The notes below the pieces were generated by a model. The model was given only the letters and a program-made list of their open reading frames with translations. It ran no database searches and had not been told where the DNA came from. Position numbers and translations under genes: made by a program. Below are positions 760-25,418 of a stretch of DNA of 39,925 nucleotides, piece after piece. The stretch covers positions 197,269 through 237,193 of the forward strand of contig CAYYLC010000001.1 in the NCBI GenBank assembly GCA_964472415.1, read 5' to 3'. The stretch is from an uncultured Gammaproteobacteria bacterium (GTDB lineage: Bacteria > Patescibacteriota > Microgenomatia > Levybacterales > GWA1-39-11). The number at the start of each line of letters is the position of its first letter. The stretch's first letter is position 1.

Positions 760-767
760 GAGAATTT

Positions 768-2458: not shown

Positions 2459-2483
2459 ATACATACATAGAATCATATGAGAT

Positions 2484-3446: not shown

Positions 3447-3457
3447 TTAGCTATTTT

Positions 3458-4756: not shown

Positions 4757-4800
4757 TATATGTCCGCTTGTTATTGCTGGCTATTTATAGTGTGATCTAA

Positions 4801-4806
4801 TAAAAT
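4801..4806 (+). promoter_or_regulatory. Candidate sigma70 -10 element (TAAAAT) for the tagD-like module
   Basis: Lies in a 57-bp intergenic gap, 7 nt before ATG 4814. An alternative TG-n-TCTAAT is at 4793-4801. The region is AT-rich, so a chance match is possible. Confidence 0.35.
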
Positions 4807-4813
4807 ATTATTT

Positions 4814-5242: not shown

Positions 5243-5249
5243 AAGAAAT

Positions 5250-6419: not shown

Positions 6420-6422
6420 TTG

Positions 6423-8549: not shown

Positions 8550-9597
8550 TTTTAAAAAAATAATCTTTGGAGTACTCCTTTTTTTTGTATGGATTCTCCT
8601 AACTGCTTGGTATGTGGTGATCTATGATCAAAGTTTTTTTATAACTTTTCAAGCTCATCAAGAGGAAAATTTTATAGATTTGAGTCATGACAGGCTCTTA
8701 AAAGGAGAGAAAATCTCCGGAGAATTCAAAGCAGAGAGAGATAATTTGGGAATAGTTTCATTAAGGTTTAAAAAATTTCTTCGCATTCCCTATGATCAAG
8801 AAGATACATTGATTTTTAGAATTAAGGAAAAAGATTCTTCTCAATGGTATTACGAAAATGAGTATAGGAGTGGATTAACATATGACGTTCCTTTTTTACC
8901 TTTTGGTTTTCCGTTAATTCCTGACTCTAAAGGGAAAATATATTATTTTGAACTCGAGTCATTGAGGGGAAATTCCGTAAATGGTGTGGTGTTGAGTGAG
9001 AGGGAGCCAATCTTGGTAACCAAGTATGAAGCAGATAGGGGTTTGGTATTTAGTAATCTTAATGAATTGTTCAATTTTTTGAATGAAAAATTTCTTAGAG
9101 CACTTTTAACAATTGATATTTTTTATTCATCAGTAATTTTTGCATTACCTTTAGTTTTCTATTTTTTACATTTTACCTCATTTGGAAAAAGGGTAATGGA
9201 ATATGTGCCGAAATTTATCATTTCAAGGCTCGAAGCTTTTGGTAAGAAATTGTTTGGTAGAAAATATAAACAAACTATAGTAATTCTGTCATCATTCTTT
9301 TATCACTGGATGTTAATCATTCTAATAGTTTTACTGTTTTTTGATATATTTTTCCTCCAAATATTAAATGATTTGTTGTACATTTTGGTAATATTTTTAT
9401 GGATCATAATATTAAAGATCTATCGGAAGGATAGAGTGCAATCTTTCAGATTGGGAATTGTATTATTGATAATTTCTCCAATGGCTCTTGCATTTAGTAA
9501 TGTTGATGTAGCTGAAAAAGCTGCAGTTTGGGCATTTGCGTTTTTTATTGCAGGCTTAATTCAGGCATTTTTAGAAATAAGAAAGAAGCGGAAATAG
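8536..9597 (+). CDS. Hypothetical membrane protein: extracellular beta-rich domain plus about 5 C-terminal TM helices
   Basis: One N-terminal TM, a ~160-aa soluble domain (FGFPLIPDSKGKIYYFELES), then a hydrophobic C-terminus; overlaps the previous stop. Confidence 0.75.
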   Translation: MEKNSFKKIIFGVLLFFVWILLTAWYVVIYDQSFFITFQAHQEENFIDLSHDRLLKGEKISGEFKAERDNLGIVSLRFKKFLRIPYDQEDTLIFRIKEKDSSQWYYENEYRSGLTYDVPFLPFGFPLIPDSKGKIYYFELESLRGNSVNGVVLSEREPILVTKYEADRGLVFSNLNELFNFLNEKFLRALLTIDIFYSSVIFALPLVFYFLHFTSFGKRVMEYVPKFIISRLEAFGKKLFGRKYKQTIVILSSFFYHWMLIILIVLLFFDIFFLQILNDLLYILVIFLWIIILKIYRKDRVQSFRLGIVLLIISPMALAFSNVDVAEKAAVWAFAFFIAGLIQAFLEIRKKRK

Positions 9598-9633: not shown

Positions 9634-10164
9634 ATGACCATTGGAATTGATATCAGTCAGCTTGCATATAGAAATACTGGTGTAGCAAATTATTTACTGA
9701 GATTATTAAAGGAATTAGTTCATCAAGATAATAATACGTATGTTTTATTTTTTTCTTCATTAAGGCGTGATATTGACCTGCAGGAGTTAGGTTTAGATAG
9801 GGAGAATGTTATACTCAAAAAATTTAAGCTTCCTCCCGTAATTCTTGATACACTTTGGAATAAGATGCATATAATGCCGATAGAAAATTTTATTGGAAAT
9901 ATTGATCTTTTTCTTACTTCTGATTGGACAGAGCCACCAGTAAAAAAAGCAAAAAAGGCGACTATTATTTATGACATGATAGTGTATAAACATCCGGAAG
10001 AAACGAATGAGAGGATTGTTAAAACACAAAAAAGAAAATTGAAGTGGGTAAAAAAGGAATCAGATATTATTTTTTGTATTTCTAAATCTACGAAAAATGA
10101 TGCGATTCAGATTTTAAACCTTGATAAAAATAAAGTACGGGTAATATATCCCGGAGTTGTATGA
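9634..10164 (+). CDS. Stand-alone N-terminal domain of a GT4 glycosyltransferase
   Basis: IGIDISQ..TGVANY, TIIYDMI and IFCISKSTKND. It ends at VRVIYPGV, the end of the GT-B N-domain, with no C-terminal nucleotide-sugar-binding domain. Confidence 0.8.
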   Translation: MTIGIDISQLAYRNTGVANYLLRLLKELVHQDNNTYVLFFSSLRRDIDLQELGLDRENVILKKFKLPPVILDTLWNKMHIMPIENFIGNIDLFLTSDWTEPPVKKAKKATIIYDMIVYKHPEETNERIVKTQKRKLKWVKKESDIIFCISKSTKNDAIQILNLDKNKVRVIYPGVV

Positions 10165-11282
10165 AGATAGGAATAAATGGATTTGAGGCTGTTATGCCAC
10201 GTTTTGGATATGATAAGAACGGATTTCCGAATCGTGTTGGGAGTTCAGAATTTTGTTTTCAGCTTCTCAAGCAATTCGAAAGAACTGACCTTAAAAACGA
10301 ATACCTTATTTTTCTTCCCGATAAGCCAAGTGCTGATATGCCGGAAGAGACAGATAGGTGGAGATATAAAATTATTCCAAATAGAAAGATGTGGACGATT
10401 TTCGGTCTTTCAAAAGAGCTCGTGATGAATCATGGGCTGGATGTGTTTTTTTCTCCCACGCATTATGGCCCTATTTATACGCCATGTCCGCAGGTAATTT
10501 CCATCCTAGACGTTTCCTATAAGCATTTTCCAGAAATGTTTCCCAAAAAGGATTTAATAAAATTAAAATTTTGGGGGAGATATTCTATAAATAGCTCTCA
10601 TAAGATCGTTACAATAAGCGAAAGTTCGAAGAATGATATAATAAATGAATACAAAGTTCCAGCGAGTAAAATTGAGGTTGTGCATCTGGGAATAAAAGAT
10701 ATTTCTCAAGCAAAAATGAATAGAAAAGATCTTGTACAAAAGTATGATTTAGATGATCCATATCTGTTATTCGTTGGAACATTACAGCCTCGAAAAAACA
10801 TCGCTCGCCTTATAGAAGCTTTTTCAAAAATTGAAAAAAAGGGTGTAGATTTGATTATCGTGGGAAGAAAAGGATGGGATTTCAAGAAAATTCTCGAAGC
10901 ACCAAAAAAATATCAAGTGAAAAATAGAGTGAGATTTTTGGAATTAGTAACTGATAAGGAATTGCCAGCACTTTATGAAGGAGCAACAGCATTTGTACTG
11001 CCAAGCTTGTATGAAGGATTCGGATTGCCTATTTTAGAGGCAATGCGATATGGATGCCCGGTCCTTACGAGTAGTATTTCATCACTTCCTGAAGCTGGTG
11101 GAGACGCAGCAGTATACTTTGACCCACAAGATCCAAATGATATTGCGGAAAAAATAAATGCCGTGTTAAAAAGTGAGAAACTGAGAGATGAGATGAGAAA
11201 AAAAGGCTATGAGCAGGTGAAGAGGTTTTCCTGGAAAAAAAGTGCAAAAGAAGTAATACAGATTTTTGAATCATTATTATGA
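10161..11282 (+). CDS. Glycosyltransferase family 4 (GT-B)
   Basis: [14 protein letters not shown] and [15 protein letters not shown] (EX7E) motifs. Confidence 0.93.
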
Positions 11283-11830
11283 ACCGGATAGAAAGACGAA
11301 TAAGAACAATACTTCTGGAATTTAGCAATTTGCTGCTAAAGTTTGTGGGCATTGTTCCTACCCATTTCTTTCGGAGATTTTTTTATAGACTATTTGGTAT
11401 GAAAATTGGTAAGGGGTCAACACTTCATACCGGTGCAGTTTTTTATAACATAAAGAATATTTCTATAGGTAGCGATACTATAATTGGTGAGAATGTAATT
11501 CTGGATGGGAGAGAGAAGATTGTGATAGGAAATCATGTCGACTTTGCGTCAGAAGTAATGATTTATAATTCTCAGCATGACATTAATAGTGATGATTTCC
11601 ATGCAGTCTCTGCTCCTGTTATTGTTAAGGACTATGTGTTTATAGGGCCTCGGGCAATTATTCTTCCAGGAGTGACTGTCGGAAAGGGCTCAGTGGTTGC
11701 AGCGGGTGCGGTCGTTACGAAGGATGTAGCAGATTTTACAATAGTTGCGGGTGTGCCTGCAAAAGTGATCGGAGAGCGAAAAAATAAAAACCCAAAATAT
11801 AAATTAGGACGAGCAGCATGGTTCCGCTAG
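11279..11830 (+). CDS. Hexapeptide-repeat (LbH) acyltransferase, WcaF/maltose-acetyltransferase-like
   Basis: Repeats of (I/V)GxxTxI, plus [31 protein letters not shown] and GVPAKVI. Confidence 0.9.
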
Positions 11831-11835
11831 AAGGT

Positions 11836-12696
11836 ATGCCAAAAATTTCCCTCATAATTCTTACCTATAATTCATCGCGATATATCTCCGATCTTCTAAC
11901 TGGACTTATGAACAGATTCGATAAAGAACTAGTAAATAAAGCCCTGGAGATTTTAGTTGCGGATAATGCTTCTCAGGATGAGACAGTAAAACTTGCAAAA
12001 AAATTTAAAAAAATTCAGGTAATAGAAAACGGGGGGAATTATGGATTTGCAAAAGGAAATAATTTAGCAGTTAAAAAAGCTACAGGAGAATATTTATTAT
12101 TTATAAATCCAGACGCGAAATTTATCGATGGAGATATTTTTGAGCTTTTGAAATCATTCAAAGATGAAAAAGTGGGGATTGTGGGAGGAGAGATTATGAA
12201 TTGGCAAAAAGAAAAAGAATTATCGTGTGGTAAATTTTATAAATTTTTTAGTACAACATTACTTACGCTTGGATTGGAAGAATTTTTTCGTGTGCGATTT
12301 TCTCCGGAAAAGGAACAGTTTGTAGATTTTGTGAGTGGGGGATTTTTAATGATTCGAAGAGAGGTTTTTGAGAAGCTTAACGGATTTGATGAAAATTATT
12401 TCATGTACATTGAGGATTCAGATCTATGTTTTCGCGCAAAAAAAATAGGATATAAAACAAAATTTTCCCCTAAAGCAACTATTCAGCACATGGGGCAAGG
12501 GAGTTCCAATAGGACATTTGCAATCATAAATATTTATAAAGGATTAGTATATTTTAATAAAAAGCATTCAAATTATTTAGAATACTTGTTTGTGAGATTT
12601 GCCCTAAAAACTAAGGCATTATTGCTTGTAATACTGGGAAAAATAATGAATAATAGATACCTGGTGGATACCTATTCTGTGGCTATGAAATTATGA
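11836..12696 (+). CDS. Glycosyltransferase family 2 (WbbL/rhamnosyltransferase-like)
   Basis: IILTYNS, ADNASQD, NYGFAKGNN, LFINPD and FDENYFMYIEDSDLC. ATG 11836 is preferred. Confidence 0.9.
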   Translation: MPKISLIILTYNSSRYISDLLTGLMNRFDKELVNKALEILVADNASQDETVKLAKKFKKIQVIENGGNYGFAKGNNLAVKKATGEYLLFINPDAKFIDGDIFELLKSFKDEKVGIVGGEIMNWQKEKELSCGKFYKFFSTTLLTLGLEEFFRVRFSPEKEQFVDFVSGGFLMIRREVFEKLNGFDENYFMYIEDSDLCFRAKKIGYKTKFSPKATIQHMGQGSSNRTFAIINIYKGLVYFNKKHSNYLEYLFVRFALKTKALLLVILGKIMNNRYLVDTYSVAMKL

Positions 12697-15600
12697 AAAA
12701 ATATTTTTCTTGGATCTTGGAACATGCCCTCTTTATCGTAACGCTTTTTCTCCTTGCATTTATCCCCTTGTATCCAAAAATCCCATTAGTTGATATTCAG
12801 AATACATGGGTATATATTCGTGCTGAGGATTTTGTTGTTTTTTTAGTTTTGATATTATGGACGATTTATCTTATTCGAAATAAGATAACATTGAGAACTC
12901 CCCTTACTCTTCCGATATTCGGATTCTGGATAGTAGGTGCTGTAGCAACGATTCATGGAATAATACTCCTTTTCCCAAATCTCGCAAATGTATTTCCGAA
13001 CGTTGCATTCCTGAGTTTTCTCAGAAATATTGAGTATATTAGTGTATTTTTTGTGGCATTTTCAGCCATGCGTGATAAAAAATTCCTAAAAATTATTATT
13101 TTTGTTCTTGTGCTAACACTTCTTGCGATTATTTTCTATGGGTTTGGTCAGAGATTTTTAGGTTTTCCCGCCTTTCTTACCATGAATGAGGAGTTTGCTA
13201 AAGGAGTTCCGATCCAGCTCTCAGAGCTTTCTCGTGTCCCCTCAACTTTTGCGGGACATTATGATTTGGCTGCATATCTCGTTTTGATAATTCCCATTGT
13301 AGTGAGTCTTATTTTTGGATTTAAAAATTGGTTTATAAAAATATTTTTAGGTATTACAACCATATTAGGGTTTGTGTTGCTTTTTATGACAGTTTCACGA
13401 GTTTCATTCTTTGTCCTCATTTTGTCACTTCTTATTGTCCTTTTCTTCCAGAAGAGAAAATTAGTTTTGTTTTCTGTGCCAGTTCTCGTAATTTTGGGAT
13501 TTGCATTTCTTATTTTACGACCTACGACACTTCTAGAACGATTTAGCGATACAGTGAATGAGGTAAATGTGCTTGTTAATGCAGAAACTGGACAAGCAAT
13601 AGCACATGTTGAATATGTAAGCCCTGATTATTTTAATGAGAAGATTATCGCACAGCAAGATATTGGTACTACTCAGGAGTTGAGCGATGTTCTAAATGGA
13701 GTATTGCAAGACGATACTGCCGCTACTCCTTCTGCTTTTTTACCTGCGAGACTTTTCCCTCAAAAAATCCCACTTGTTATCGATAGAAATGTTTCGACTG
13801 GGGAGGAGCTTATTCAAGGAACTGGATATATAAATCTTTCACTTTCACCAGTTGATAAAAAACTAGGGAACTTTTTCTATGAAATTACTGATGAGAAAAA
13901 CTCTAACATCTCTGCAGATGTTCTTATACTACATGGAGACTTTTTGGTAAAACGGGCAGCAGCATATGATCTCTCGTTTACGACTAGGTTTCAAGGGGGA
14001 TGGCCGAATGCTTTGGAATCATTTGAGAGAAATGTGTTTTTAGGGAGCGGATATGGAACGGTGACACTGGCTGTGGATAATAATTATCTCAGAATACTGG
14101 GGGAAATCGGCATATTAGGACTTCTGTCCTATGCAGGAATATTTGTAACACTTGGGATTTATATTGTGAGAGTTCTTCCGAAGACCGATTCAAGCCTTCT
14201 TAAAAGCTTCGTGATTGGGTATGCTGCAGGAGTTATAGGGATTGCCTTGAACGCAACACTTATCGATGTATTTGCAGCCTCAAAAGTCGCATTTGTATTG
14301 TGGCTTTTGACTGGAGTAGTGGTTGGGTTACTCTCTTTGTATCAAGTAAGAGAGTTAGATTTTAAAGCAGAGTTGAGAAACTTTACACTATCGCCTGTTG
14401 CGATAATTTTGTATATTTTTATTCTTACATTCGTTATTTATATTCCAATACTTAATAATTATTTTATTGGGGATGATTTTACGTGGTTTCGGTGGGCGGT
14501 AGATTGCACGTATGGAGGACTACAGTCCTGCCCAAATATTTTTGAACGAATAGCAGACTATTTTACATCAGCTAATGGATTTTTCTATAGACCTGGCACA
14601 AAAACATTCTTCCTTGTCGGATATTCAGTGTTTTGGTTAAATCAAGTAGTTTTTCATTTAATATCCATAATGCTCCACGCAATTGTCGTTGCGTTATTTT
14701 TTCTACTTTCTCGGAAAGTTTTGAAGAGTAATTTGCTTGCAGCACTTGGGGGCATTCTTTTTATTGTGATGAGCGGATATGCAGAAGTGGTGTTCTGGAT
14801 ATCCGGAATTGGACACCTTTTTAATGCAGTATTTGTAATGTTTTCGATACTGCTTTTTTCTGCATGGAACAACTCAAGAAAAGTTTATTATCTACTCGGT
14901 AGCATTGTTTCTATATTCTTAGCTACATTTTTCCATGAATTAGGAGTAGTGGCGCCTCTCCTTATTATTATATATTCCTTATTTGTGACAAAGCGATTTA
15001 CTATAAAAAGATTGCATAAGAAAATAGATATATTTGTATTGTTTATTCCTGTCGTGCTGTATCTTTTGATGCGTTATATGGCAAAAAGTCATTGGAGTGG
15101 AGGAGATTATAGCTACGATATTTTGATGCTACCGTTTAATGTAGTGGGAAATATTTTTGGTTATGTGATGATAGTAATTTTAGGGCCCATGTCTTTGTCC
15201 TTCTACCAGGTTATTCGTACCACTCTGAGAGAAAATATTTTTGTTGCAGGAATCTTGGCTGTGATTTTCATAGGTATCTTGTTCATTCTCTACCAGTATT
15301 TGTGGAAGAAGATTAAGCAAGATGATATTAAGATAATCCTTTTTGGAATTGCATTTTTTATTATCTCCCTACTTCCATTTATCGCTTTGGGAAACATAGC
15401 CTCTCGATATAGTTATCTTGCTTCCATTGGAATTGTAATTATTATGGTGTTTATTCTTGGTAAATTATTGAGAATTCTGATGAGGTATGGTGCAGGGATC
15501 GCCTATGGCGGGATGCTTGTTCTGCTTTCTATCTTTACGCTATTTCATATTATCCAGATTCAGCAGCTCCATGGGGATTGGAAAACAGCGGGGGATAAAG

Positions 15601-15935
15601 TTGAGCAATTCCTTATCTCCATGGATTCACTTTATAGAGATTCTTGGGCAAGTGCTGAGACAGAATTGCATTTTGTAAATGTACCGATAAAGCACAATGA
15701 TGCTTGGGTGTTTCCAGTAGGTGTTGAAGATGCGCTATGGCTTACATTCCAGAATGATGATTTGAAAGTGGTGAATCATCAAAGTATTGATGATGCAGTG
15801 GATTTAGTTGGGCTGTTTCCACATAAATCTATTTTAGTTTTTGAAGAAAATGGTCATATAGAAGAGATAAGAGTTTTTAAAAGTATTTATACAGGAGACA
15901 TAGAATACGAGTTTGTAAATACAGAAAGAGAATAG
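12693..15935 (+). CDS. Fusion protein: O-antigen ligase/Wzy-like domain plus TMTC-like GT-C glycosyltransferase domain
   Basis: N-half: RVPSTFAGHYDLAAYL, TVSR and R....W..A...LGSGYG...DNNYLRILGEIG. C-half: FIGDDF, FYRP, FHLISIMLH and EVVFWISG. About 20 or more TM segments in one uninterrupted 1080-aa frame. Confidence 0.75.
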   Translation: MKKYFSWILEHALFIVTLFLLAFIPLYPKIPLVDIQNTWVYIRAEDFVVFLVLILWTIYLIRNKITLRTPLTLPIFGFWIVGAVATIHGIILLFPNLANVFPNVAFLSFLRNIEYISVFFVAFSAMRDKKFLKIIIFVLVLTLLAIIFYGFGQRFLGFPAFLTMNEEFAKGVPIQLSELSRVPSTFAGHYDLAAYLVLIIPIVVSLIFGFKNWFIKIFLGITTILGFVLLFMTVSRVSFFVLILSLLIVLFFQKRKLVLFSVPVLVILGFAFLILRPTTLLERFSDTVNEVNVLVNAETGQAIAHVEYVSPDYFNEKIIAQQDIGTTQELSDVLNGVLQDDTAATPSAFLPARLFPQKIPLVIDRNVSTGEELIQGTGYINLSLSPVDKKLGNFFYEITDEKNSNISADVLILHGDFLVKRAAAYDLSFTTRFQGGWPNALESFERNVFLGSGYGTVTLAVDNNYLRILGEIGILGLLSYAGIFVTLGIYIVRVLPKTDSSLLKSFVIGYAAGVIGIALNATLIDVFAASKVAFVLWLLTGVVVGLLSLYQVRELDFKAELRNFTLSPVAIILYIFILTFVIYIPILNNYFIGDDFTWFRWAVDCTYGGLQSCPNIFERIADYFTSANGFFYRPGTKTFFLVGYSVFWLNQVVFHLISIMLHAIVVALFFLLSRKVLKSNLLAALGGILFIVMSGYAEVVFWISGIGHLFNAVFVMFSILLFSAWNNSRKVYYLLGSIVSIFLATFFHELGVVAPLLIIIYSLFVTKRFTIKRLHKKIDIFVLFIPVVLYLLMRYMAKSHWSGGDYSYDILMLPFNVVGNIFGYVMIVILGPMSLSFYQVIRTTLRENIFVAGILAVIFIGILFILYQYLWKKIKQDDIKIILFGIAFFIISLLPFIALGNIASRYSYLASIGIVIIMVFILGKLLRILMRYGAGIAYGGMLVLLSIFTLFHIIQIQQLHGDWKTAGDKVEQFLISMDSLYRDSWASAETELHFVNVPIKHNDAWVFPVGVEDALWLTFQNDDLKVVNHQSIDDAVDLVGLFPHKSILVFEENGHIEEIRVFKSIYTGDIEYEFVNTERE

Positions 15936-15953: not shown

Positions 15954-17390
15954 ATGAAAAAAAAGACCCTCATTTTTCTTATCATAATTTTCCTTTTCGG
16001 ATTTATAGTACGGATTTATAAAATCCATGAGCCGATTGCTGATTGGCATTCATTCCGCCAATCAGATACTGCTGCGGTTTCGAAAATTTATGCAAGAGAG
16101 GGAATTGATATGTTGTATCCTAAATATTACGATATTTCAAATGTCCAATCAGGGTTAGATAATCCAAGCGGGTACCGATTTGTAGAATTTCCACTATATA
16201 ATGTCTTTCACGCATTATTATCAAATACTTTCTCATTTTTTTCATTTGAAATATGGGGAAGGCTCATAAATATTTTTGCATCGCTTGCGAGCGCATTCGC
16301 GATATATTTATTAGTAAGAAAGTACGCAAATGAAATTTCTGCAAGATTTTCTCTAATAGCATTTTTATTTCTTCCGTTTTCTATTTTTTATAGTAGATCA
16401 ATCCTTCCGGATGTTATGATGACGACAAGCATTCTTACGGGGACGTATTTTTTCGATAAATATCTTGAAAAGAGAAGAAATACTAGGGTGACAATTTTGT
16501 TTTATATTCTGGCTTTATTTTTTGTAGCACTCGCATTTCTTCTCAAGCCATTTTCTTTGTTTTTTACGTTTCCTCTTGTGTATCTTGCGTGGAAAAAATA
16601 TAGTATCAAGATATTTTTTAGCATTCCGCTTTGGATTTTTGCAGTCTCTGCAGTTGCTCCATTAATATGGTGGCGATATTGGATTTCTCAATTCCCTGAA
16701 GGGATTCCTGTATCTGCATGGCTTTTTAATGGGAATGGTATCAGGCTTCGTCCGGCATTTTTCCGATGGATTTTGTATGAAAGGATTACTAAATTAATTC
16801 TCGGCTTTAGTGGAATAATATTTTTATTGGGAAGTTTCTGGTCGTTGAAAAAGAAGAATATATTTTTTTTCCTTTCATTTGCATTTTCGAGCATGGTTTA
16901 TTTAATAATTATCGCAACTGGAAATGTTCAGCATGATTATTATCAAATTGCAATAATTCCGACGATTTCGATATTTGTAGGACTTGGTGCTTATGAGATA
17001 TATAAATTTATTGCAAAAAGGACATTTTCAATTTTCGGATTCATGGTAGTTGGAATTTTGTTTTTAACTGCCTTTCTTTTTTCTTGGAATCAAGTGAAGG
17101 ATTATTTTAATATAAATGATAGGAATATGGTTGAAGCGGGGAGGCGAGCTGACGAGATTTTGCCACAGAATGCTTTAGTGATTGCCCCTTATGATGGAAG
17201 TAGCACACTGCTCAATATGGTTTCTCGGAGAGGATGGCCAGTATTCCAAAGTTCTGTAGAAGATCTGATAAAAAAAGGTGCAGATTATTTAATAATAGCA
17301 AGTCCTACCGAGAATGATAGAATGGGATTTGGTAGACAATATGAAATATTAGAGAGTAGTGATGCATATTTGATACTAAGGCTACAATGA
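15954..17390 (+). CDS. GT-C glycosyltransferase, PMT/ArnT-like (family 39/83-like)
   Basis: First loop WHSFRQSDTAAVS, EFPLY, YSRSILPD, LAFLLKP and many TM helices. Confidence 0.8.
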   Translation: MKKKTLIFLIIIFLFGFIVRIYKIHEPIADWHSFRQSDTAAVSKIYAREGIDMLYPKYYDISNVQSGLDNPSGYRFVEFPLYNVFHALLSNTFSFFSFEIWGRLINIFASLASAFAIYLLVRKYANEISARFSLIAFLFLPFSIFYSRSILPDVMMTTSILTGTYFFDKYLEKRRNTRVTILFYILALFFVALAFLLKPFSLFFTFPLVYLAWKKYSIKIFFSIPLWIFAVSAVAPLIWWRYWISQFPEGIPVSAWLFNGNGIRLRPAFFRWILYERITKLILGFSGIIFLLGSFWSLKKKNIFFFLSFAFSSMVYLIIIATGNVQHDYYQIAIIPTISIFVGLGAYEIYKFIAKRTFSIFGFMVVGILFLTAFLFSWNQVKDYFNINDRNMVEAGRRADEILPQNALVIAPYDGSSTLLNMVSRRGWPVFQSSVEDLIKKGADYLIIASPTENDRMGFGRQYEILESSDAYLILRLQ

Positions 17391-18559
17391 TCAAGATTTT
17401 ATTTGTAACATATGATTTTCCGTTTCCGCCAAATTCTGGAGGAAAAAGTAGAGCTTATAATCTCATGAAGTATGCGAAGACGAAAGGTGTACAGATTTAT
17501 CTCTTGTCATTTATGAGAGCTAGTTTTGATAAAAAATGGAAAAGAGAGCTATATGATATCGGAGTTTCAGAAGTAGGGGTTCATAAGAGGAAGAAATTAA
17601 AGTCCATATCTACTATCTCTAAAAATATCCTTTCAAAGGACTCTATTTTTAAAACTCTTTATCATGATGATGGTTTTAAGAAAAAATTATTAAATATGAT
17701 AGAGGTGCATAATATAGACGTTGTCCATTTTGAATCAAGTTATACTGGATATTATCTGAAGTATGTAAAAACGGGAAAAATTAAAACAATTCTTGGAACA
17801 GAAAATATTGAACACCTTTTATATCAGGACTTTCTTAAGACTACAAATTTTATACAAAAATCTATATTGCAATTTCAGATTGATCGATTTAAAAGAGAGG
17901 AGGAATTGATGATGAAGTTGGCAGACCTAAGTCTTGCGGTAACTAAAGATGAGGCGCGATATATAGAGAGAATTTCAGGTAAAAAATGCGAAGTTGTAGA
18001 AAATGGAATTAGCGTAAAAGATTTAAGCTATTCTTTCCAAGAGCGCACTATCGATAATCTCATATTCGTTGGAAATTTTTCATACATGCCAAATCGAGGC
18101 GCGATTCAATATTTTATTCGTGATGTAATGCCGAAATTACCCGAAAATATAACTTTAACGATTATTGGAAAAAACGTTTCAAAGTACGTGGAGCCGAGTG
18201 GGAGAATTAGAGTAAAAGATTTTGTATCGGATTTATCTGTAGAGTATAAGAATTCTGATGCGCTGATTTTCCCCGTTAAAATAGGTGGAGGAACGAATTT
18301 TAAAGTTCTTGAAGCCATGGCTTTGGGGGTGCCGGTTGTAGGATTTGCTGATAAAATAGAAAGCATAGGAGCTCGAAAGAATAAGGAATTTTTTCCTGTA
18401 GAAAATGCCTTGGATTTTGTACGACAGATCGAGACTATTCAGAATAAGAGAGAAATAGTAAAAGAGGTGACGATGAGTGCAAGAAAACTAGTGGAGGAGA
18501 ATTATTCTTGGGAGGAGATTGGGAGAAAGCTCAATACTATTTGGAAAAATTATAAATGA
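17387..18559 (+). CDS. Glycosyltransferase family 4
   Basis: FPPNSGGKSR, FVGNFSYMPN, GGGTNFKVLEAMALGVPVV and YSWE motifs. Confidence 0.92.
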   Translation: MIKILFVTYDFPFPPNSGGKSRAYNLMKYAKTKGVQIYLLSFMRASFDKKWKRELYDIGVSEVGVHKRKKLKSISTISKNILSKDSIFKTLYHDDGFKKKLLNMIEVHNIDVVHFESSYTGYYLKYVKTGKIKTILGTENIEHLLYQDFLKTTNFIQKSILQFQIDRFKREEELMMKLADLSLAVTKDEARYIERISGKKCEVVENGISVKDLSYSFQERTIDNLIFVGNFSYMPNRGAIQYFIRDVMPKLPENITLTIIGKNVSKYVEPSGRIRVKDFVSDLSVEYKNSDALIFPVKIGGGTNFKVLEAMALGVPVVGFADKIESIGARKNKEFFPVENALDFVRQIETIQNKREIVKEVTMSARKLVEENYSWEEIGRKLNTIWKNYK

Positions 18560-19470
18560 AGAAAATTGACTTATCGATAATAATCGTAACATTTAAATCA
18601 GAAAATTTGATAGAAAAATGTTTGGATTCTGTGTATGAAAATGCAGGCGATGTTAGTCTTGAAGTGATTATCTCCGATAATAGCCCAAATCAAAATACGA
18701 AGGATGTAATTGAGAAAATTCAGAGTAAATACAAAAACTTTGCTTTTGTTAAGAATAAGAAAAATGAGGGATTTTCTCGCGGCAATAATATTGGAATTAA
18801 AAAAGCAGTCGGTGAATATGTGCTTTTTCTAAATCCTGATGTGATTCTTAAAAAAAATACTTTGAGAGGGATGCTTGATTTTATAAAGGAGCATTCAAAC
18901 GCAGGAGCTGTCACTTGTCGGGTAAATCTCATGAATGGACAACTTGATGATTCGTGCCACCGAGGATTCCCTACTCCATGGAATGCATTTTGTCATTTCA
19001 CGAAGCTTTCAAAACTATTTCCCAAGATAAAACTTTTTTCAGGATACAATTTAACATATATGGATTTTTCTAAAACTCACGAGATTGATGCTTTGGCTGG
19101 GTCTTTTATGTTGATGCCATTTTCATTAGGTAGAAAATTAAATTGGTGGGATGAAGATTACTTTTTTTATGGTGAAGACATTGATTTTTGCTACCGGATT
19201 AAAAAAACAGGTTTTAAGATTTATTTTGTTCCTAAATATGAGGCTCTTCATTATAAAGGGGCTTCGAGTGGTATCAAAAAAATATCCAAAAATATCAGCA
19301 CTGCTGATAAAAAGACGAAGCTTTGGGTTACTAATCAGCGCTTTAAGGCGATGGAGATTTTTTATGACAAACATTATAAGAAAAAATATCCGAGTATATT
19401 AAGATCGGCCATATTACTCGGAATTAATTCTCGAAAAAATATAGAAAGGATGCGTATCTTTTTAAGTTAA
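18556..19470 (+). CDS. Glycosyltransferase family 2 (WbbL-like)
   Basis: IIIVTFKS, SDNS, GFSRGNN, LFLNPD and WDEDYFFYGEDIDFC motifs. Confidence 0.92.
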   Translation: MKKIDLSIIIVTFKSENLIEKCLDSVYENAGDVSLEVIISDNSPNQNTKDVIEKIQSKYKNFAFVKNKKNEGFSRGNNIGIKKAVGEYVLFLNPDVILKKNTLRGMLDFIKEHSNAGAVTCRVNLMNGQLDDSCHRGFPTPWNAFCHFTKLSKLFPKIKLFSGYNLTYMDFSKTHEIDALAGSFMLMPFSLGRKLNWWDEDYFFYGEDIDFCYRIKKTGFKIYFVPKYEALHYKGASSGIKKISKNISTADKKTKLWVTNQRFKAMEIFYDKHYKKKYPSILRSAILLGINSRKNIERMRIFLS

Positions 19471-20580
19471 ATGAGAATAGGAATAGACGCTCGTTTGTAT
19501 TATGAGAGCGGTGTTGGGAGATATATAAAAAATACACTCGAGCAGTTAGATGAACGCTGCCGTACTGAGAAAATAGATCACAAATTTTTTATCTTCTTGT
19601 CTTCTAAAGGGTTTCAGCAGATACATTTTAATAGTAATAACCTTATAAAGGTGGAAGCCGATATTTCATGGCATTCCCTCCAGGAGCAATTTTTATTTGC
19701 AAAGCTTTTGAATTCATATAATCTTGATCTTATGCATTTCACCTATTTCTCACTCCCTATTTTTTATAGAAAGAAATTTGTGGTAACAATTCATGATTTA
19801 ATTATCAATCATGTGAATACGGGAAAAGCAACTACACTTCCGAAACCATTATATTATCTCAAGCGTTTTGTATATCATAAGGTGATCCGTTATGCAGTTA
19901 AAAATTCAATTTATATTATTTCTCCTTCTGATGCGACAAGAGATGAGGTAGTTTCCTATTATAAAATAAAAAAGGAAAAAATAATCGTAATTCCAGAAGG
20001 GGTAGACCCTGAGGTCAAAAAAATAAAAAAACCACAGATAAAAATTCCTATGCCGTATATTTTATATGTTGGGAATGCGTATCCTCATAAAAATTTAAAT
20101 CGTCTCGTTGAATCTTATGTCAGTATTGAAAATACTATTAAGCAAGAGTTATTACTTGTGGGAAGAAGTGATTATTTTTATAAAAGACTACATAATAAGA
20201 TTCGCAACCATAAAAAGATCCATATTTTGCATGGGATTTCTGATAATGAATTGGCCTATCTTTATAAAAAAGCAGATTTTCTTATAGCACCATCTCTCAT
20301 GGAGGGTTTTGGATTAACACCGCTTGAGGCCATGGGAAATGGTTGCTTACCTGTAGTATCTCGCATTGACGCTTTTTATCAAGTATGTAGGAATGCTGCA
20401 TTGTATTTTAATCCTAAAGATATTCAAGATATCTCTCTTGTTCTTTCAAATGCGGCAAATCTTTCTACTCAAGAGAAGTCTAAGTATAAAAAGCGTTTTC
20501 GCGATCGGCTAGAGTTATTTTCCTGGAAAAAATCAATAGAGAGGACTTTGTCAGTTTATGAACGTTGCAATAGTATATGA
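19471..20580 (+). CDS. Glycosyltransferase family 4
   Basis: IGIDAR..SGVGRY, YVGNAYPHKNL and PSLMEGFGLTPLEAM motifs. Confidence 0.93.
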   Translation: MRIGIDARLYYESGVGRYIKNTLEQLDERCRTEKIDHKFFIFLSSKGFQQIHFNSNNLIKVEADISWHSLQEQFLFAKLLNSYNLDLMHFTYFSLPIFYRKKFVVTIHDLIINHVNTGKATTLPKPLYYLKRFVYHKVIRYAVKNSIYIISPSDATRDEVVSYYKIKKEKIIVIPEGVDPEVKKIKKPQIKIPMPYILYVGNAYPHKNLNRLVESYVSIENTIKQELLLVGRSDYFYKRLHNKIRNHKKIHILHGISDNELAYLYKKADFLIAPSLMEGFGLTPLEAMGNGCLPVVSRIDAFYQVCRNAALYFNPKDIQDISLVLSNAANLSTQEKSKYKKRFRDRLELFSWKKSIERTLSVYERCNSI

Positions 20581-21634
20581 TCGAGTAAATAAATGGGGGG
20601 GAGCTGAGCGAGTTCTTCTGGCGCTTCATGAAATGTTTCCAGGCGCGCCACTTTACACGTCTCTTTATTCTCCACAAAAAGCGAAATGGGCACGTAAATT
20701 TGAAGTAAGAACATCATTTCTCCAACGCCTCAAATTTCTTCGTGATAAACATGAATTACTGGGGCTTTTTATGCCAATTGCGTTTGAATCATTTGATTTT
20801 TCTGAGTTTGACTTGGTGATTTCCGTAACGAGCGAATCGGCAAAAGGGATTATTACTCCTCCCCAGGTAAAACATATTTGTATTTGTCTTACGCCCACTC
20901 GATATTTATGGAGTGAGTATGGGCAGTATTTTAAGAATCCGATATTTCGATTTATTACATCGCCACTAGTTTGGTATTTAAAAAAATGGGAACTTGTTGC
21001 GATACAAAGACCTGATTATATAATAGCAATTTCCCAAAATATTCAAAGAAAAATAGGTAAATTTTATGGTAAGAAGAGTGATGTAATATATCCTCCAGCA
21101 AGTTCAATTCTTCAAGAAGAAAACATCATAGAGCCACAGAATAAGGATTATTTATTAGTGGTCTCTCGACTTGTCCCCTATAAAAAAATTGACATAGTGG
21201 TGAAGGCTGCAAATGAATTGAACTTGCCATTGGTTGTAGTAGGGAAGGGAATTGAAGAACAGTATTTGAGAGAAATAGCCGGCAAAACAGTGCAATTTAA
21301 AAGATCAGTTCGAGATGATGTGTTGCGGGGATATTTAAAGAATGCGAAAGTGCTTATTTATCCATCCGAGGAGGATTTTGGGATTGGGATGGTGGAGGCG
21401 CAGCTCCATGGAACTCCTGTTATCGCATTTCGGAAAGGAGCTGCTAGTGAGATAGTAGTTCCTGGTGAGACCGGTGAGTTATTTGAGCAGCAGACAGCGG
21501 GTTCACTTATCGCTGTGTTGAAAAAATTCAACGCAACTTCGTATAATAGAGATAGATGTAGAAAAAACGGTATGCGTTTTTCAAATCAGGTTTTTAAGAG
21601 TGCACTTACTCGTTACATACGGAAAGTGATATAA
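20558..21634 (+). CDS. Glycosyltransferase family 4 (probable mannosyltransferase type)
   Basis: GGAERVL, VVSRLVPYKKID and EEDFGIGMVEAQ (EX7E); directly upstream of manC. The sugar specificity is inferred from context. Confidence 0.9.
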   Translation: MNVAIVYDRVNKWGGAERVLLALHEMFPGAPLYTSLYSPQKAKWARKFEVRTSFLQRLKFLRDKHELLGLFMPIAFESFDFSEFDLVISVTSESAKGIITPPQVKHICICLTPTRYLWSEYGQYFKNPIFRFITSPLVWYLKKWELVAIQRPDYIIAISQNIQRKIGKFYGKKSDVIYPPASSILQEENIIEPQNKDYLLVVSRLVPYKKIDIVVKAANELNLPLVVVGKGIEEQYLREIAGKTVQFKRSVRDDVLRGYLKNAKVLIYPSEEDFGIGMVEAQLHGTPVIAFRKGAASEIVVPGETGELFEQQTAGSLIAVLKKFNATSYNRDRCRKNGMRFSNQVFKSALTRYIRKVI

Positions 21635-21643
21635 TCAAAAAAT

Positions 21644-22726
21644 ATGAAAGTAGTCTTTTTTGCAGGAGGAGTCGGAACGCGATTGTGGCCCGTTTCTCGC
21701 AAAAGCACCCCGAAACAATTCGAAAAAATTGTAGGTGATAAGTCTACTTTGCAGCTTGGGATTGATCGAGTTAGAGATATTGTAGATTCGCAGGATATTT
21801 ATATTTCTACAGGAAAAAGTTACAGTAAGGTTATTTACAATCAGCTCCCTGAGGTACCAAAGCAAAATATTATTCTAGAACCGTGTGCTCGTGATGTAGG
21901 GGCAGCTGTTGGAATGGTTGCGGCAATTTTGTCTCGTGTTTCTCCGGACGAACCATTCGTTATATTATGGAGTGATCACTTAGTGAAAGAGACTGAAAAA
22001 TTCCAAAAAATCTTACTTGCTGCAAAAGAAATATTGGAAAAAGACTCTGAAAAGATCGTTTTTATCGGTCAAAATTCTCGGTTCCCGAGTGAAAACCTTG
22101 GATGGATTGAAAGTGGTGATAAGGTACAAGACATAGATGGGCTCGAGGTTTTCCGTTTTAAAAGTCTCCATTATAGACCAGATAAAGAGACTGCAGAACG
22201 CTTCCATGATAGTAAGAATCATTCATGGAATCCTGGGTATTTTGTAACGACTGGAAGACACTTATTTAGTCTTTATGAGAAGCATGCTCCTGAGATGGCA
22301 AAAAAGTTAAAGTTGATTGCGAGTCATTGGGGTAAAGATAGTTTTCAGGAGGTTATTGATAGAGAGTACCCATTGTTCGAGAAAATATCCTTTGATAATT
22401 TAATCCTTGAAAAACTTGAAGAAAGTGATGGATACGTGATAGGGGCAGAGCTTGGATGGAGTGATATTGGAGCATGGGAAGCATTAAAAGAAGCACTTTC
22501 AGATAGTGAAGACGAGAGTATTACGAAAGGAAAGGTGCTTTTGCATGATGTGCGGGATAGTATTGCGTATAACTATACCGATAAAATGATTGTGGGGATT
22601 GATCTTGATGGAATGATAATCGTTAACACGAATGATGTTATTATGATCTGTCCAAAAAATTCTGTTCCAAAGATAAAAAAGCTCGTAGAGTCATTGGAGG
22701 GGACAGAATACGAACATCTCACATAG
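21644..22726 (+). CDS. manC: Mannose-1-phosphate guanylyltransferase (monofunctional, no cupin/PMI domain)
   Basis: AGGVGTRLWPVSRKSTPKQF, ILEP..RD, WSDH, SWNPGYF, ISFD and WSDIGAW motifs. Confidence 0.9.
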   Translation: MKVVFFAGGVGTRLWPVSRKSTPKQFEKIVGDKSTLQLGIDRVRDIVDSQDIYISTGKSYSKVIYNQLPEVPKQNIILEPCARDVGAAVGMVAAILSRVSPDEPFVILWSDHLVKETEKFQKILLAAKEILEKDSEKIVFIGQNSRFPSENLGWIESGDKVQDIDGLEVFRFKSLHYRPDKETAERFHDSKNHSWNPGYFVTTGRHLFSLYEKHAPEMAKKLKLIASHWGKDSFQEVIDREYPLFEKISFDNLILEKLEESDGYVIGAELGWSDIGAWEALKEALSDSEDESITKGKVLLHDVRDSIAYNYTDKMIVGIDLDGMIIVNTNDVIMICPKNSVPKIKKLVESLEGTEYEHLT

Positions 22727-22781
22727 GGTTATGATTTCAGCCTATTTATATTTTCAAGCACAGTATTTTATTTACTAGATT

Positions 22782-23420
22782 ATGTTTTACGATATCTCAA
22801 AACGAATTTTCGATATTTTTTTTGCCATAACTCTTCTTATATTATTTTCTCCTATATTATTGGTTACCGTTATTGCAATAAAACTAAACTCTCCGGGGCC
22901 AGTATTTGCAGATACGCCACCACGAGTAGGGAAAAATGGAAAGACATTTCGGATGTATAAGTTTCGTTCTATGGTCCAGAATGCACATGATATTTTGACT
23001 ACTGATCCTACATACAAAAAGCTTTTTGAAGAATATAAGAAGAGTGGATACAAACTTCGAAATGATCCTCGGATAACAAGTGTAGGGAGATTTATTCGAA
23101 AGTATTCAATTGACGAGATGCCACAGTTTCTGAATGTTATCAGTGGTGATATGAGTATAGTGGGACCTCGTGCATATTACGGCGATGAATTACGAGATCA
23201 GCAAAAAAAATTCCCTCATACAAAAAATGCGGTTAAGATTGTGCTTTCAGTAAAGCCTGGGATTACTGGCGTGTGGCAAGTTACCGGGCGTAGTGATATT
23301 AATTTTGATAAACGGATTCAGCTTGATGCGAACTATGCAAAACGACGATCTATATGGTATGATTTCTATCTGATACTACGTACTCCATTTGCTATGCTTT
23401 CCGGTAAGGGCGCATTGTAG
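22782..23420 (+). CDS. Initiating sugar-phosphate (polyprenyl-P glycosyl-1-P) transferase, small PGT of the WbaP/WcaJ C-terminal type
   Basis: KRIFDI, YKFRSM, DPRITSVGRFIRKYSIDEMPQFLNV, MSIVGPR and KPGITGVWQVTGR motifs. Confidence 0.93.
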   Translation: MFYDISKRIFDIFFAITLLILFSPILLVTVIAIKLNSPGPVFADTPPRVGKNGKTFRMYKFRSMVQNAHDILTTDPTYKKLFEEYKKSGYKLRNDPRITSVGRFIRKYSIDEMPQFLNVISGDMSIVGPRAYYGDELRDQQKKFPHTKNAVKIVLSVKPGITGVWQVTGRSDINFDKRIQLDANYAKRRSIWYDFYLILRTPFAMLSGKGAL

Positions 23421-23421
23421 C

Positions 23422-23450
23422 TTGCTTGCATGTAAAAAAGTTTTTATGAT
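23422..23450 (+). promoter_or_regulatory. Candidate sigma70 promoter TTGCTT-17 bp-TATGAT
   Basis: Canonical 17-bp spacing in a 33-bp intergenic gap. If real, transcription starts after ATG 23454, so Met5 (ATG 23466) would be the true start. Confidence 0.5.
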
Positions 23451-23453
23451 TAA

Positions 23454-25418
23454 ATGAATACTTATATGGATAATAACGGGTTTAAAAAGATAGAATTAAA
23501 TAATGCGAAATCCCAAAAGGATATAATAGAAGAAAGGGAGCAGGAGATGGGAAAACGAAAAAGAAAATTTTCATTAAAATCTCGGAAAGCAAAAATTATT
23601 TCAGCAATTCTTGTATTTGTTATATTGCTGGGTATCTATACTACGATAAGCGCGATAGGGATTTATAAACAAGGGCAGATTGTTGAGGAGAAAGCTCGTC
23701 TTGCGATGGATGCTATTAAGCAGCAAAATATCCAAGAAGCCCGAAATCAGCTTGGAGAAACACACAAAGAGGTCAAATCACTCTCTTCAAAAGTAAATGG
23801 GGTATTTTATCTTGGGTTTATCCCATTTTTAGGAGGTTATTATAATGATCTCAATCATATGGTAAAAGCTGCAGATCACGGTGTTCAGGCGGGAATTATC
23901 ACTACAGAAACGCTAATCCCTTATGCAGATGTGTTAGGACTTCAGGGTGATGGAAAATTCTCTGGCGGAACTGCACAGGATAGAATTCGTCTTGCAGTAC
24001 AAACTATGGGGAAGGTTGTACCAGAAATTGACAAAATTGAAGAACAGATAGTCTTTGCAAAAAAAGAAATGGATGAGGTGAATCCGAAACACTATCCTGA
24101 GATCGGGAAGATGAAAGAACTGCGTGTAATGCTCATAGATCTCAAAAGTGGAGTTGATAGTGCAGTTTTTGCAGTAAACGAAGGCAAGCCGCTTATTAAA
24201 GCACTCCCCGGATTATTAGGAGAATCTGAACCGCAAAGATATCTAGTATTATTTCAGAATGACGCAGAGTTGCGTGCTACCGGGGGATTTCTCACGTTCT
24301 ATTCTATATTTAAAGTCGATGAAGGTGTAATAGAGGTAGAGGATTCCTCAGATATTTACGAGCTTGATGAGAGCATCTCTTCACATCCTGCACCCCCTCC
24401 GATTGTTCGAAAATACCTTGAGGTTAATAGGTTGTATATTCGGGATAGTAACTTATCACCAGATTTTAAAGAGTCTATGGATAGTTTTCTCTCACAGTAT
24501 GAGAATTCTGGAAAGGAGCAGGATATTAATGGAATTATTGCAATTGATACAGAGGTGCTTGTCAATATGATTAGAATTTTGGGTGAAGTAAGTGCTTCAG
24601 GGCTTACGTTCAATGCGGAAACAGATCCTCGATGTGACTGCCCGCAGGTTGTGTATGAGCTTGAGGATCAAATTTCTCGTCCGGTAAATTATATCCGTAC
24701 GAATAGAAAAGGTTTAATTTCAGAACTCATGCTTGCGATTATGAATAAGGCACTATCTTCATCACCAGGTCAGTATTGGGGGCCACTATTCCAACAATTC
24801 GTGATTGATGCACAGGAAAAACATATTCTGTTCTACGTATTTAATGAAGATGCTCAAAAAGGACTTGAGGCGCTGAATTGGGCGGGAAGAATCCGGATGT
24901 TTGATGGGGACTATTTGCATATTAATGATGTAAACCTAGGTGGAGCAAAGTCGAATCTGTTTATTTCTCAGAGCGTAGAAATGGATTACACTATTGAGGA
25001 TGATGGGCAAATCAAGAAAAAAATTACTATCGAATATCGAAATCCACGACCACATTCTGATTGTGATCTGGAGAGTGGTGCGCTATGTTTGAATGCAACA
25101 TTAGGTAATTTCCAGCGAGTATATGTGCCTAAAGGTGCAAAGCTTGCCAATGTAAAAGGTTCTCAAGTAGATGTTGAGACGAAAGAAGAGTTAGGAAAGA
25201 CGTATTTTGAATCATTCTTAACTGTCCCACCGCTTGGAAAAGCCGAGATTTCTTATGAATATATTCTTCCATTTAAATTACATGAAGATTCAGTTCTTCC
25301 TGTTATGTTGCAAAAACAGCCGGGGGTTGAGCTGATAAAATACGAGATTAGCGTAAATGGAGAAAAAGTTGAAGAATTTGATTTGCGGGGAGACAAGATT
25401 TTAGAACTTGAGGTGTGA
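23454..25418 (+). CDS. DUF4012 domain-containing membrane-anchored protein
   Basis: Basic N-terminus, one TM and a helical stalk, then LVLFQNDAELRATGGF, RDSNLSPDF and GIIAID motifs and a beta-rich C-terminal domain. The start may be 23466. Confidence 0.82.
   Translation: MNTYMDNNGFKKIELNNAKSQKDIIEEREQEMGKRKRKFSLKSRKAKIISAILVFVILLGIYTTISAIGIYKQGQIVEEKARLAMDAIKQQNIQEARNQLGETHKEVKSLSSKVNGVFYLGFIPFLGGYYNDLNHMVKAADHGVQAGIITTETLIPYADVLGLQGDGKFSGGTAQDRIRLAVQTMGKVVPEIDKIEEQIVFAKKEMDEVNPKHYPEIGKMKELRVMLIDLKSGVDSAVFAVNEGKPLIKALPGLLGESEPQRYLVLFQNDAELRATGGFLTFYSIFKVDEGVIEVEDSSDIYELDESISSHPAPPPIVRKYLEVNRLYIRDSNLSPDFKESMDSFLSQYENSGKEQDINGIIAIDTEVLVNMIRILGEVSASGLTFNAETDPRCDCPQVVYELEDQISRPVNYIRTNRKGLISELMLAIMNKALSSSPGQYWGPLFQQFVIDAQEKHILFYVFNEDAQKGLEALNWAGRIRMFDGDYLHINDVNLGGAKSNLFISQSVEMDYTIEDDGQIKKKITIEYRNPRPHSDCDLESGALCLNATLGNFQRVYVPKGAKLANVKGSQVDVETKEELGKTYFESFLTVPPLGKAEISYEYILPFKLHEDSVLPVMLQKQPGVELIKYEISVNGEKVEEFDLRGDKILELEV

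Follow-up and report, generated by a model that had tools for sequence, protein, structure and literature searches.

O-antigen ligases of the WaaL type use two arginines to bind undecaprenyl pyrophosphate (Und-PP) and a histidine to activate the acceptor (PMC10920833); the residues are R191, R265 and H313 in the Cm enzyme and R215, R288 and H338 in the Ec enzyme. SEDS proteins and inverting polymerases of the Wzy type, which belong to the same clan, have Asp or Glu where the ligases have His, together with one or two conserved Arg, and sequence diversity is low where donor and acceptor are fixed (PMC10920833). The TMTC enzymes have seven motifs, M1 to M7 (DD, SHKSYRP, RxD, KE(T/Q)xxT, DW, PxxP and ERxxY), which form a metal and dolichyl-phosphate-mannose site, and the closest homologue of these enzymes with a solved structure is ArnT, which modifies lipid A (PMC7801869). 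Here we describe a gene that joins a module related to the first group to a module related to the second, found in a 39,925-nt stretch of a Patescibacteriota contig (CAYYLC010000001.1; the whole stretch is called the window below). We hold it to be about an even proposition that its product is a bifunctional, membrane-embedded glycan-assembly enzyme, in which an outer-face polymerase-like module is combined with a GT-C glycosyltransferase (GT) that decorates or extends the product from a lipid-phosphate-linked sugar. The fusion, which is conserved across Microgenomatia, probably builds and decorates a surface polymer rather than carrying out the two-step protein glycosylation proposed in a preliminary description of this DNA. 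Bacteria of the candidate phyla radiation (CPR), to which Microgenomatia belong, combine very small genomes with a life attached to hosts, and next to nothing is known of the chemistry of their cell envelopes.

The fusion is encoded by the only long open reading frame (ORF) at its place, the start of which shares a 4-nt overlap (ATGA) with the stop of the upstream GT2 gene. A crude hydropathy scan of the protein gives ~21 hydrophobic segments, and the junction at aa ~551-567 is short and rich in lysine and arginine (K/R), with a continuous frame, a conserved linker, and an identical layout in 80+ other genomes. Residue conservation was scored over 41 fused homologues at 32-69% identity. Among these D595 is invariant, and 90% or more of them keep D594, W598, W601, R633, P634, H655, E698, W702, E749, R905, Y906 and Y908; because conservation holds across this range, the cited motifs are not chance matches. 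The preliminary description had called the ORF a double GT-C fusion, and the ORF, structural models and homologues bear this out; DD at 594-595, YRP at 632-634, FHxxxxxLH and ExVxWISG are all at the residues it gave. Pfam finds a sub-threshold Wzy_C match in the N half of the window protein, a sub-threshold EpsG match in the C half, and nothing more. Sequence searches of the PDB with the single protein, a 42-homologue fused profile and a 37-member C-module profile returned nothing relevant; fold comparison alone worked.

The AlphaFold2 (AF2) model of the N half (aa 1-560, from 41 homologues; predicted local distance difference test score, pLDDT, 72) contains 12 long helices, with a large loop (276-463) between transmembrane helices (TM) 9 and 10, which is the topology of WaaL. 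In Foldseek its top match is the WaaL O-antigen ligase 7TPG (7tpg_B; E 3.6e-4, target TM-score 0.62), the sole significant match to a solved structure, with FtsW and RodA following weakly. The preliminary description had assigned ligase or Wzy motifs to this half, and that assignment stands by structure and by a split orthologue in locus L086 that passes the Wzy_C cut-off at 33.1 bits; a further homologue, P0017, has a precomputed PF04932 match. Sequence signals in the window protein itself are weak: Wzy_C scores 16.3-17.5 bits, below the cut-off of 31.7, and NCBIfam IctB (TIGR00947) matches at E 1.8e-10, far below its own cut-off. At 40 bits versus the required 366, identity with the IctB bicarbonate transporter was rejected. 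The large outer loop holds a beta-rich insert of ~145 aa that has no Pfam match and no counterpart in WaaL. R236 is likely the equivalent of the Und-PP phosphate binder R215 of E. coli WaaL (TQTR), and R432, set in the pattern R-x4-W...G-x-G-x-G, is likely the equivalent of R288, the second Und-PP-binding Arg; both placements combine motif fit with a non-significant greedy hhalign alignment.

Whether this module is a ligase or a polymerase turns on D462. On the Pfam Wzy_C profile, residues 205-354 of E. coli K-12 WaaL correspond to positions 6-146, which puts the essential H338 (VHLH338NE) at ~130, and residues 412-480 of the window protein correspond to positions 74-148, which puts D462 (AVD462NNYL...GEIGILG) at ~130 as well. 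Like R236 and R432, D462 is invariant in the 41 fused homologues. The N-module profile aligned to E. coli WaaL by hhalign gave no significant result (probability 0.2%) and serves as a consistency check on the motif positions. The N module is thus like WaaL in its modelled fold and, by these residues, like a polymerase in its presumed catalytic base. The name ligase given in the preliminary description is not supported, since the position of the WaaL catalytic His, which PMC10920833 ties to O-antigen ligases, is taken by an invariant Asp. Identity to homologues is 57-78% in the N module and 43-59% in the C half. That the N module is so strongly conserved suggests a single, fixed donor and acceptor, with which a housekeeping polymer fits rather than a serotype-variable antigen.

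The C half was modelled with higher scores (aa 556-1080; pLDDT 87, predicted template-modelling score 0.88), and Foldseek matches it at probability 1.00 to STT3, PglB, DPY19, AftA, Pmt1/2/4 and ALG3 (E 2e-4 to 0.09, TMq up to 0.52). An exhaustive HMMER search with this half returned 9513 relatives at E<=1e-3, of which those at E~1e-19 to 1e-23 have Pfam PMT or PMT_2 domains or a TMTC-like architecture of transmembrane segments plus TPRs. One relative, P0237, passes the PMT cut-off, PMT/PMT_2 matches occur in 7 of 37 family members, and TPRs are confined to distant relatives such as P0250 and P0254. The window protein itself has no Pfam PMT, PMT_2 or MIR match, DUF1736 (PF08409) has no match at E<=1 in it or in 36 relatives, and hhalign of the C-module profile against E. 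coli ArnT is not significant (E 0.039).

The TMTC motif order claimed for this half holds in part: DD, YRP, the Glu of M4 and the RxxY of M7 are present, and a proline (P895) is conserved in the helix preceding R905-x-x-Y908. The SHKS, RxD, Lys of M4 and DW of TMTCs are not recognisable in the window protein, nor does it have DUF1736 or a TPR domain. The place of the TPR (TMTC), MIR (PMT) or periplasmic (ArnT) domain is taken by a small C-terminal alpha/beta domain with a conserved WVFPVG motif. Because these motifs form a metal and lipid-phosphate-sugar site, and because ArnT is the nearest solved homologue of TMTCs, they inform on the donor and not on a protein acceptor. With motifs that bind metal and a lipid-phosphate sugar, and with neither a TPR nor a MIR domain, the claim that the C module is a protein glycosyltransferase is not supported.

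Membrane topology was derived from loops taken from the helices of both AF2 models. The K/R fraction drops from 0.33 in predicted inner loops to 0.06 in predicted outer loops, the predicted cytoplasmic loops being RNKITLR, MRDKK, QKRK, the linker YQVRELDFKAELR, SRKVLKS and VTKRFTIKRLHKK. Twelve helices put the C terminus of the N module in the cytoplasm, so that the first helix of the C module places DD594-595 outside. The models and K/R content together put the large N loop, DD, E698, E749 and RxxY on the outer face. Read with the positive-inside rule, these models predict an outer-face location for both catalytic loops as well as for the C-terminal domain.

The fused form is widespread. A homologue search of 5.8 billion proteins gave 1267 matches, and the best 120 of these are 1053-1094 aa long at 95-100% query coverage and 52-69% identity, except for P0001, which is the protein of the window itself in truncated form on a short contig. 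Named entries among these 120 are annotated as 'O-antigen ligase family protein' or 'hypothetical protein' and come from Candidatus Levybacteria or Patescibacteria. Farther fused homologues are ~1000-1035 aa long, with a C half of 25-40% identity, and belong to Patescibacteria where named. A scan of one genome per GTDB species gave 318 tblastn-positive matches, of which 80 were kept for inspection; all 80 span residues ~1-1060, come from Levy-, Roizman-, Gottesman- and Woesebacteria, and lie within one syntenic operon of ~14 genes. In a diverged lineage a 540-aa gene and a 480/511-aa gene are adjacent and separate, in unchanged operon order; the products of the second gene (P0178/P0288) are 35% identical to the C half, and the split recurs on contigs from two independent metagenomes. 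In L086, the ORFs of a Wzy_C protein (507 aa) and a GT-C (498 aa) are in different frames and share 20 nt at an A6 run. The frames switch at GAGAAAAAAGCAAAGTAG (7990-8020 of that locus), and removing one A of the run restores the fused ORF, so this split may be real, a recent frameshift, or a homopolymer sequencing error. The best three candidates for standalone C modules (P0121, P0125 and P0160) have their starts right at the edges of contigs of 2-3 kb, and they were set aside as probably truncated fused proteins. Genes that are split but adjacent in one lineage and fused in another are the classical signature of cooperating proteins. On the question of fused and split forms across CPR that the preliminary description had raised, the fused form is seen in at least 80 species genomes and the split but adjacent form in one diverged lineage and, ambiguously, in L086. 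Two doubts raised there, that the fusion is a one-off artefact and that the C half is not a GT-C, are rejected by the homologues and by Foldseek, respectively.

In the mechanism we favour, the phosphoglycosyl transferase (Bac_transf) and the cytoplasmic GT4, GT2 and acetyltransferase enzymes of the operon would make an Und-PP-linked oligosaccharide, which would then be flipped across the membrane. In the N module, R236 and R432 would hold the Und-PP donor and D462 would serve as the acceptor-activating base, units being polymerised in the manner of Wzy or SEDS proteins or, less likely, ligated to a fixed acceptor. The C module, through D594/D595, R633, E698, E749 and R905/Y908, would take a monosaccharide from a polyprenyl-phosphate sugar and place it on the same nascent polymer as a branch or an extension. 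The fusion would couple these two outer-face steps 1:1. A bolder proposal, which we consider unlikely, is that the fusion is self-contained on the outer face and brings two classes of lipid-linked donor (Und-PP-oligosaccharide and polyprenyl-phosphate-monosaccharide) to one acceptor, making a conserved and perhaps essential surface glycoconjugate by which the envelope of Microgenomatia would be defined. Such a use of two donors could take the form of prime-and-ligate glycosylation of a protein or S-layer, or of a polymerase with co-synthetic branching, and neither coupling has been described for GT-C enzymes.

Several observations weigh against a polymerase that decorates its own product. The mapping of His to Asp is Pfam coordinate arithmetic plus a motif pattern, for which direct alignment by hhalign is not significant. 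Wzy polymerases are usually highly variable, unlike the N module. The Foldseek matches of the C half rank oligosaccharyltransferases that use lipid-pyrophosphate-linked oligosaccharides (STT3/PglB) above the PMTs. The window has no ArnC/GtrB/DPM1-type polyprenyl-phosphate-sugar synthase and no GtrA-type flippase, so that the donor proposed for the C module is putative, and a Wzx flippase occurs only in this genome's variable upstream region, outside the conserved core. The acceptor may be a glycan, a lipid, peptidoglycan or a protein. In a different arrangement, the C module and the neighbouring PMT_2 enzyme would use lipid-phosphate sugars to build or complete a lipid- or wall-anchored, non-protein primer, onto which the N module would ligate the Und-PP chain. 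The extreme conservation of the N module suits such a fixed acceptor, and the two co-conserved GT-Cs, the ManC-like pyrophosphorylase and several GT4s recall lipomannan-type pathways, so that the fusion would be a functional analogue of WadA, which provides the precedent, or of monoderm lipoglycan assembly; no LCP-type ligase is seen in the window. We rate this arrangement as rather unlikely, because Asp in place of His favours polymerase-type chemistry if the CAZy generalisation holds, no lipid-phosphate-sugar synthase is seen locally, and the anchor would be hypothetical.

Two-step protein glycosylation, in which the C module would O-glycosylate a surface protein such as an S-layer protein or pilin with one sugar taken from a lipid-phosphate donor and a PglL/WaaL-like N module would ligate a preassembled Und-PP-glycan onto that sugar, is quite unlikely in our estimate. 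The Wzy_C family includes protein O-oligosaccharyltransferases, the clan of the C module includes protein O-mannosyltransferases, and the module has relatives with TMTC-like transmembrane and TPR architecture; the high conservation is also compatible with a fixed acceptor. That clan, however, also holds ArnT and other glycan-modifying GT-Cs, so the motifs are no sign of a protein acceptor, and in place of the His typical of ligases there is an Asp. A protein-binding domain of the TPR or MIR kind was not found, and the conserved operon has no candidate gene for an acceptor protein. The bimodular ligase WadA, which completes its acceptor and then ligates onto it, offers a precedent for the sequence of steps (PMC10920833). 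Priming of a protein followed by ligation onto the monosaccharide is thus possible without specific support, in the context of a glycopolymer pathway. It is very unlikely that one module is catalytically dead and acts as a scaffold or as a binding partner for the polymer or lipid carrier. The RxD and DW of TMTCs are indeed not recognisable and the window protein fails Pfam thresholds, but R236, R432, D462, D594, D595, R633, E698, E749 and R905 show at least 90% conservation, several being invariant, among homologues with as little as 32% overall identity. As for an assembly, read-through or frameshift artefact, the halves in L086 do lie in different frames at the A6 run, which means that frame changes at the junction either happen or are mis-sequenced, and the window shows no sign of one. 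More than 120 clusters of near-full-length homologues from independent sources, the full span of all inspected tblastn matches, the continuous frame and the conserved linker leave that explanation a negligible probability.

Table 1. Features of the fusion gene and its operon in the window (aa numbers refer to the fusion protein).
Feature	Position	Strand	Basis
Whole fusion ORF	12693..15935	+	ATG start, 1080 aa; more than 120 homologues of nearly full length, 52-69% identical
N module, aa 1-550: Wzy/WaaL-superfamily (GT-C_B) membrane domain, 12 modelled TM helices	12693..14342	+	AF2, Foldseek, weak Wzy_C/IctB matches
T233-V-S-R236, outer end of TM8	13389..13400	+	R236 invariant; motif similarity
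Beta-rich insert in large outer loop, aa ~286-430, with strongly conserved segments GTGYINLSLSPV and AYDLSFTT	13548..13982	+	Secondary structure of model, conservation
TTR432FQGGW	13980..14003	+	T430, T431, R432, Q434, W437, P438 invariant
AVD462NNYL, Asp at the position of the WaaL catalytic His	14070..14090	+	Pfam Wzy_C coordinates; D462 invariant
Linker, aa 551-567, YQVRELDFKAELRNFTL, cytoplasmic, connects N and C modules	14343..14393	+	Sequence and models; K/R content
C module, aa 568-990: GT-C_A membrane glycosyltransferase, ~11 TM, PMT/TMTC/ArnT clan	14394..15662	+	AF2, Foldseek, relatives
D594-D595, first outer loop directly after TM1; TMTC M1, GT-C catalytic/metal Asp pair	14472..14477	+	Conservation; PMC7801869
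Y632-R-P634, 37 residues past DD; YRP part of TMTC M2 SHKSYRP	14586..14594	+	Conservation; PMC7801869
FHLISIMLH 654-662 (TM2 start) and EVVFWISG 698-705 (outer loop 2)	14652..14807	+	H655, E698, W702 conserved
H748-E749-L-G, outer loop 3; Glu of TMTC M4 KE(T/Q)xxT	14934..14945	+	Conservation; PMC7801869
A-S-R905-Y-S-Y908, outer loop 5; RxxY of TMTC M7 ERxxY	15399..15416	+	Conservation; phosphate contact in TMTC models
C-terminal alpha/beta domain, ~90 aa, predicted extracytoplasmic	15663..15932	+	Strands 436-520 of C-half model, pLDDT ~90
GT4 N-domain ORF (176 aa), GT4 (373 aa), hexapeptide acetyltransferase (183 aa), GT2 (292 aa)	9634..12696	+	Pfam; 62-79 of 82 loci
Second GT-C, Pfam PMT_2/PMT, 478 aa, directly downstream of the fusion	15954..17390	+	Pfam; 77 of 82 loci, offset unchanged
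GT4, GT2, GT4, GT4, ManC-like nucleoside-diphosphate (NDP)-sugar pyrophosphorylase, Bac_transf phosphoglycosyl transferase, DUF4012 single-pass protein	17387..25418	+	Pfam; synteny

The genes from 61 to 38921 are all on the + strand, and the fusion gene sits in an operon that also encodes an acetyltransferase, a second GT-C, six cytoplasmic GTs, a phosphoglycosyl transferase and an NDP-sugar pyrophosphorylase (Table 1), a set present in 56-79 of 82 loci. When compared by tblastn with 82 related loci, the core genes each appear at a near-identical offset in 47-79 of them, and the counts drop only where contigs end. Beyond the operon lie RecO and an aminoacyl-tRNA synthetase, followed by a division and cell-wall (dcw) cluster. 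The possibility that the C module is a recent duplicate of the neighbouring PMT_2 GT-C was rejected, as hhalign finds only a distant relation between the two (E 4.5e-4), covering TM2-TM4 only. The three GT2s match structures of the TarS/chondroitin-synthase type and not GtrB/DPMS; alignment to ArnC is limited to an N-terminal core of ~100-130 aa, in two of the three. The operon ends, where loci reach far enough, with a 654-aa DUF4012 protein (23454-25418) that has a single N-terminal TM and may have a co-polymerase or export role for the polymer. At the other end, the 176-aa ORF for a GT4 N-terminal domain (Glyco_transf_4; 9634-10164) overlaps a complete 373-aa GT4 (10161-11282). Since 62 of the 82 loci retain both ORFs, the half-size GT4 is a maintained gene rather than a piece of a pseudogene.

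Upstream of the core, the block 61-9597 has genes found in none or in one to two of the 82 loci: three methyltransferases (two of the FkbM type), a GT2 with a C-terminal TM, the Wzx flippase, a TagD-like cytidylyltransferase and a TagF-like glycerophosphotransferase. It also holds membrane proteins of 709 aa and 360 aa. This block looks like a strain-variable decoration island (glycerol-phosphate, methylation) joined to the invariant core operon. The 709-aa protein (6420-8549; ~11 TM) has a weak PMT_2 match (E 0.0026) and may be a third GT-C; in 41 of the 82 loci a weak homologue (25% identity) lies at about this offset, and related loci have further large membrane proteins without annotation there. 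As called, the Wzx-like ORF starts at 3368 and shares 79 nt with the preceding GT2, which ends at 3446; the Pfam match of the Wzx-like ORF runs from residue 53, so its true start is probably farther downstream. Within the dcw cluster (MraZ, MraW, FtsI, MurE, MurF, MurA, ..., MraY, FtsW), GlmU-like functions are encoded by two overlapping ORFs, a 250-aa nucleotidyltransferase (35428-36180) and a 205-aa hexapeptide acetyltransferase (36146-36763), instead of by a single bifunctional gene. Many records of metagenome-assembled genomes with this operon (L003, L004, L008, L011, L012 and others) are titled 'uncultured Gammaproteobacteria bacterium'. Since their gene content and closest named relatives are those of Patescibacteria, these titles look like a bulk-submission mislabel.

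With ~14 genes whose order is unchanged in the ~80 genomes inspected, drawn from four candidate phylum-level groups, the operon likely encodes a core envelope trait. In the window it adjoins the division and cell-wall cluster, and the fused enzyme would be its central outer-face step. A GT-C_B module fused to a GT-C_A module can be read as a 'Rosetta stone', marking Wzy/WaaL-type and PMT/ArnT-type enzymes as a physical pair, and this pairing could guide the study of many systems in which the two enzymes are separate. The protein is also a compact and highly conserved structural target for the coupling of polymerisation and decoration. Sequences of the family are public and generically annotated; the label 'O-antigen ligase family protein' gives no hint of the second catalytic module, is probably wrong for the first, and should be changed. 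Full-text literature searches gave no account of a GT-C_B + GT-C_A fusion or of this protein family.

Set beside the described enzymes, the fusion fails at least one of the defining features tested for GT121, for TMTC and for PMT. It shares with WaaL (GT121, 7TPG, Wzy_C) 12 TM, an outer loop between TM9 and TM10, and the best structural match, with two Arg that are likely equivalents by motif, and departs from it in the Asp at the His position, the beta-rich loop insert and the second GT-C. The monoderm-like organisms that carry the fusion are not expected to have a lipid A-core acceptor. With inverting Wzy polymerases (clan GT-C1, GT125-129) and SEDS proteins (GT119) it has in common the GT-C_B class, the Arg, and Asp or Glu in place of His, the mapping of D462 being indirect; the operon with a phosphoglycosyl transferase and cytoplasmic GTs and the weak FtsW/RodA matches in Foldseek are further points of likeness. 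Wzy is normally hypervariable, however, whereas the N module keeps its high identity across genera. The C module resembles TMTC1-4 (GT105), PMT (GT39) and ArnT (GT83) in its GT-C_A fold and in the order DD, YRP, loop-3 Glu and loop-5 RxxY, which is that of TMTC, and differs from all of them in having the small alpha/beta domain instead of TPRs, MIR or an ArnT-type periplasmic domain. As in GtrA/GtrB/GtrC, ArnC/ArnT, GacI/GacL and CsbB/YfhO, a GT-C stands in a glycopolymer cluster and is predicted to add a single sugar outside; unlike those three-component systems, the window comes without a GtrB/ArnC-type synthase or a GtrA-type flippase. To our knowledge the GT-C of such decoration systems is never fused to a polymerase or ligase. 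WadA of Brucella and Mesorhizobium (GT121+GT25) is the only described fusion of a Wzy_C-superfamily module with another GT, and like the protein described here it joins that module to a second GT of the same pathway in one polypeptide, a bimodularity that has been taken as evidence of coupled action (PMC10920833). The partner in WadA is a soluble, cytoplasmic GT-A-type enzyme that uses a nucleotide sugar, whereas the partner in the fusion is a membrane GT-C predicted on the outer face, which presumably draws on a lipid-linked donor.

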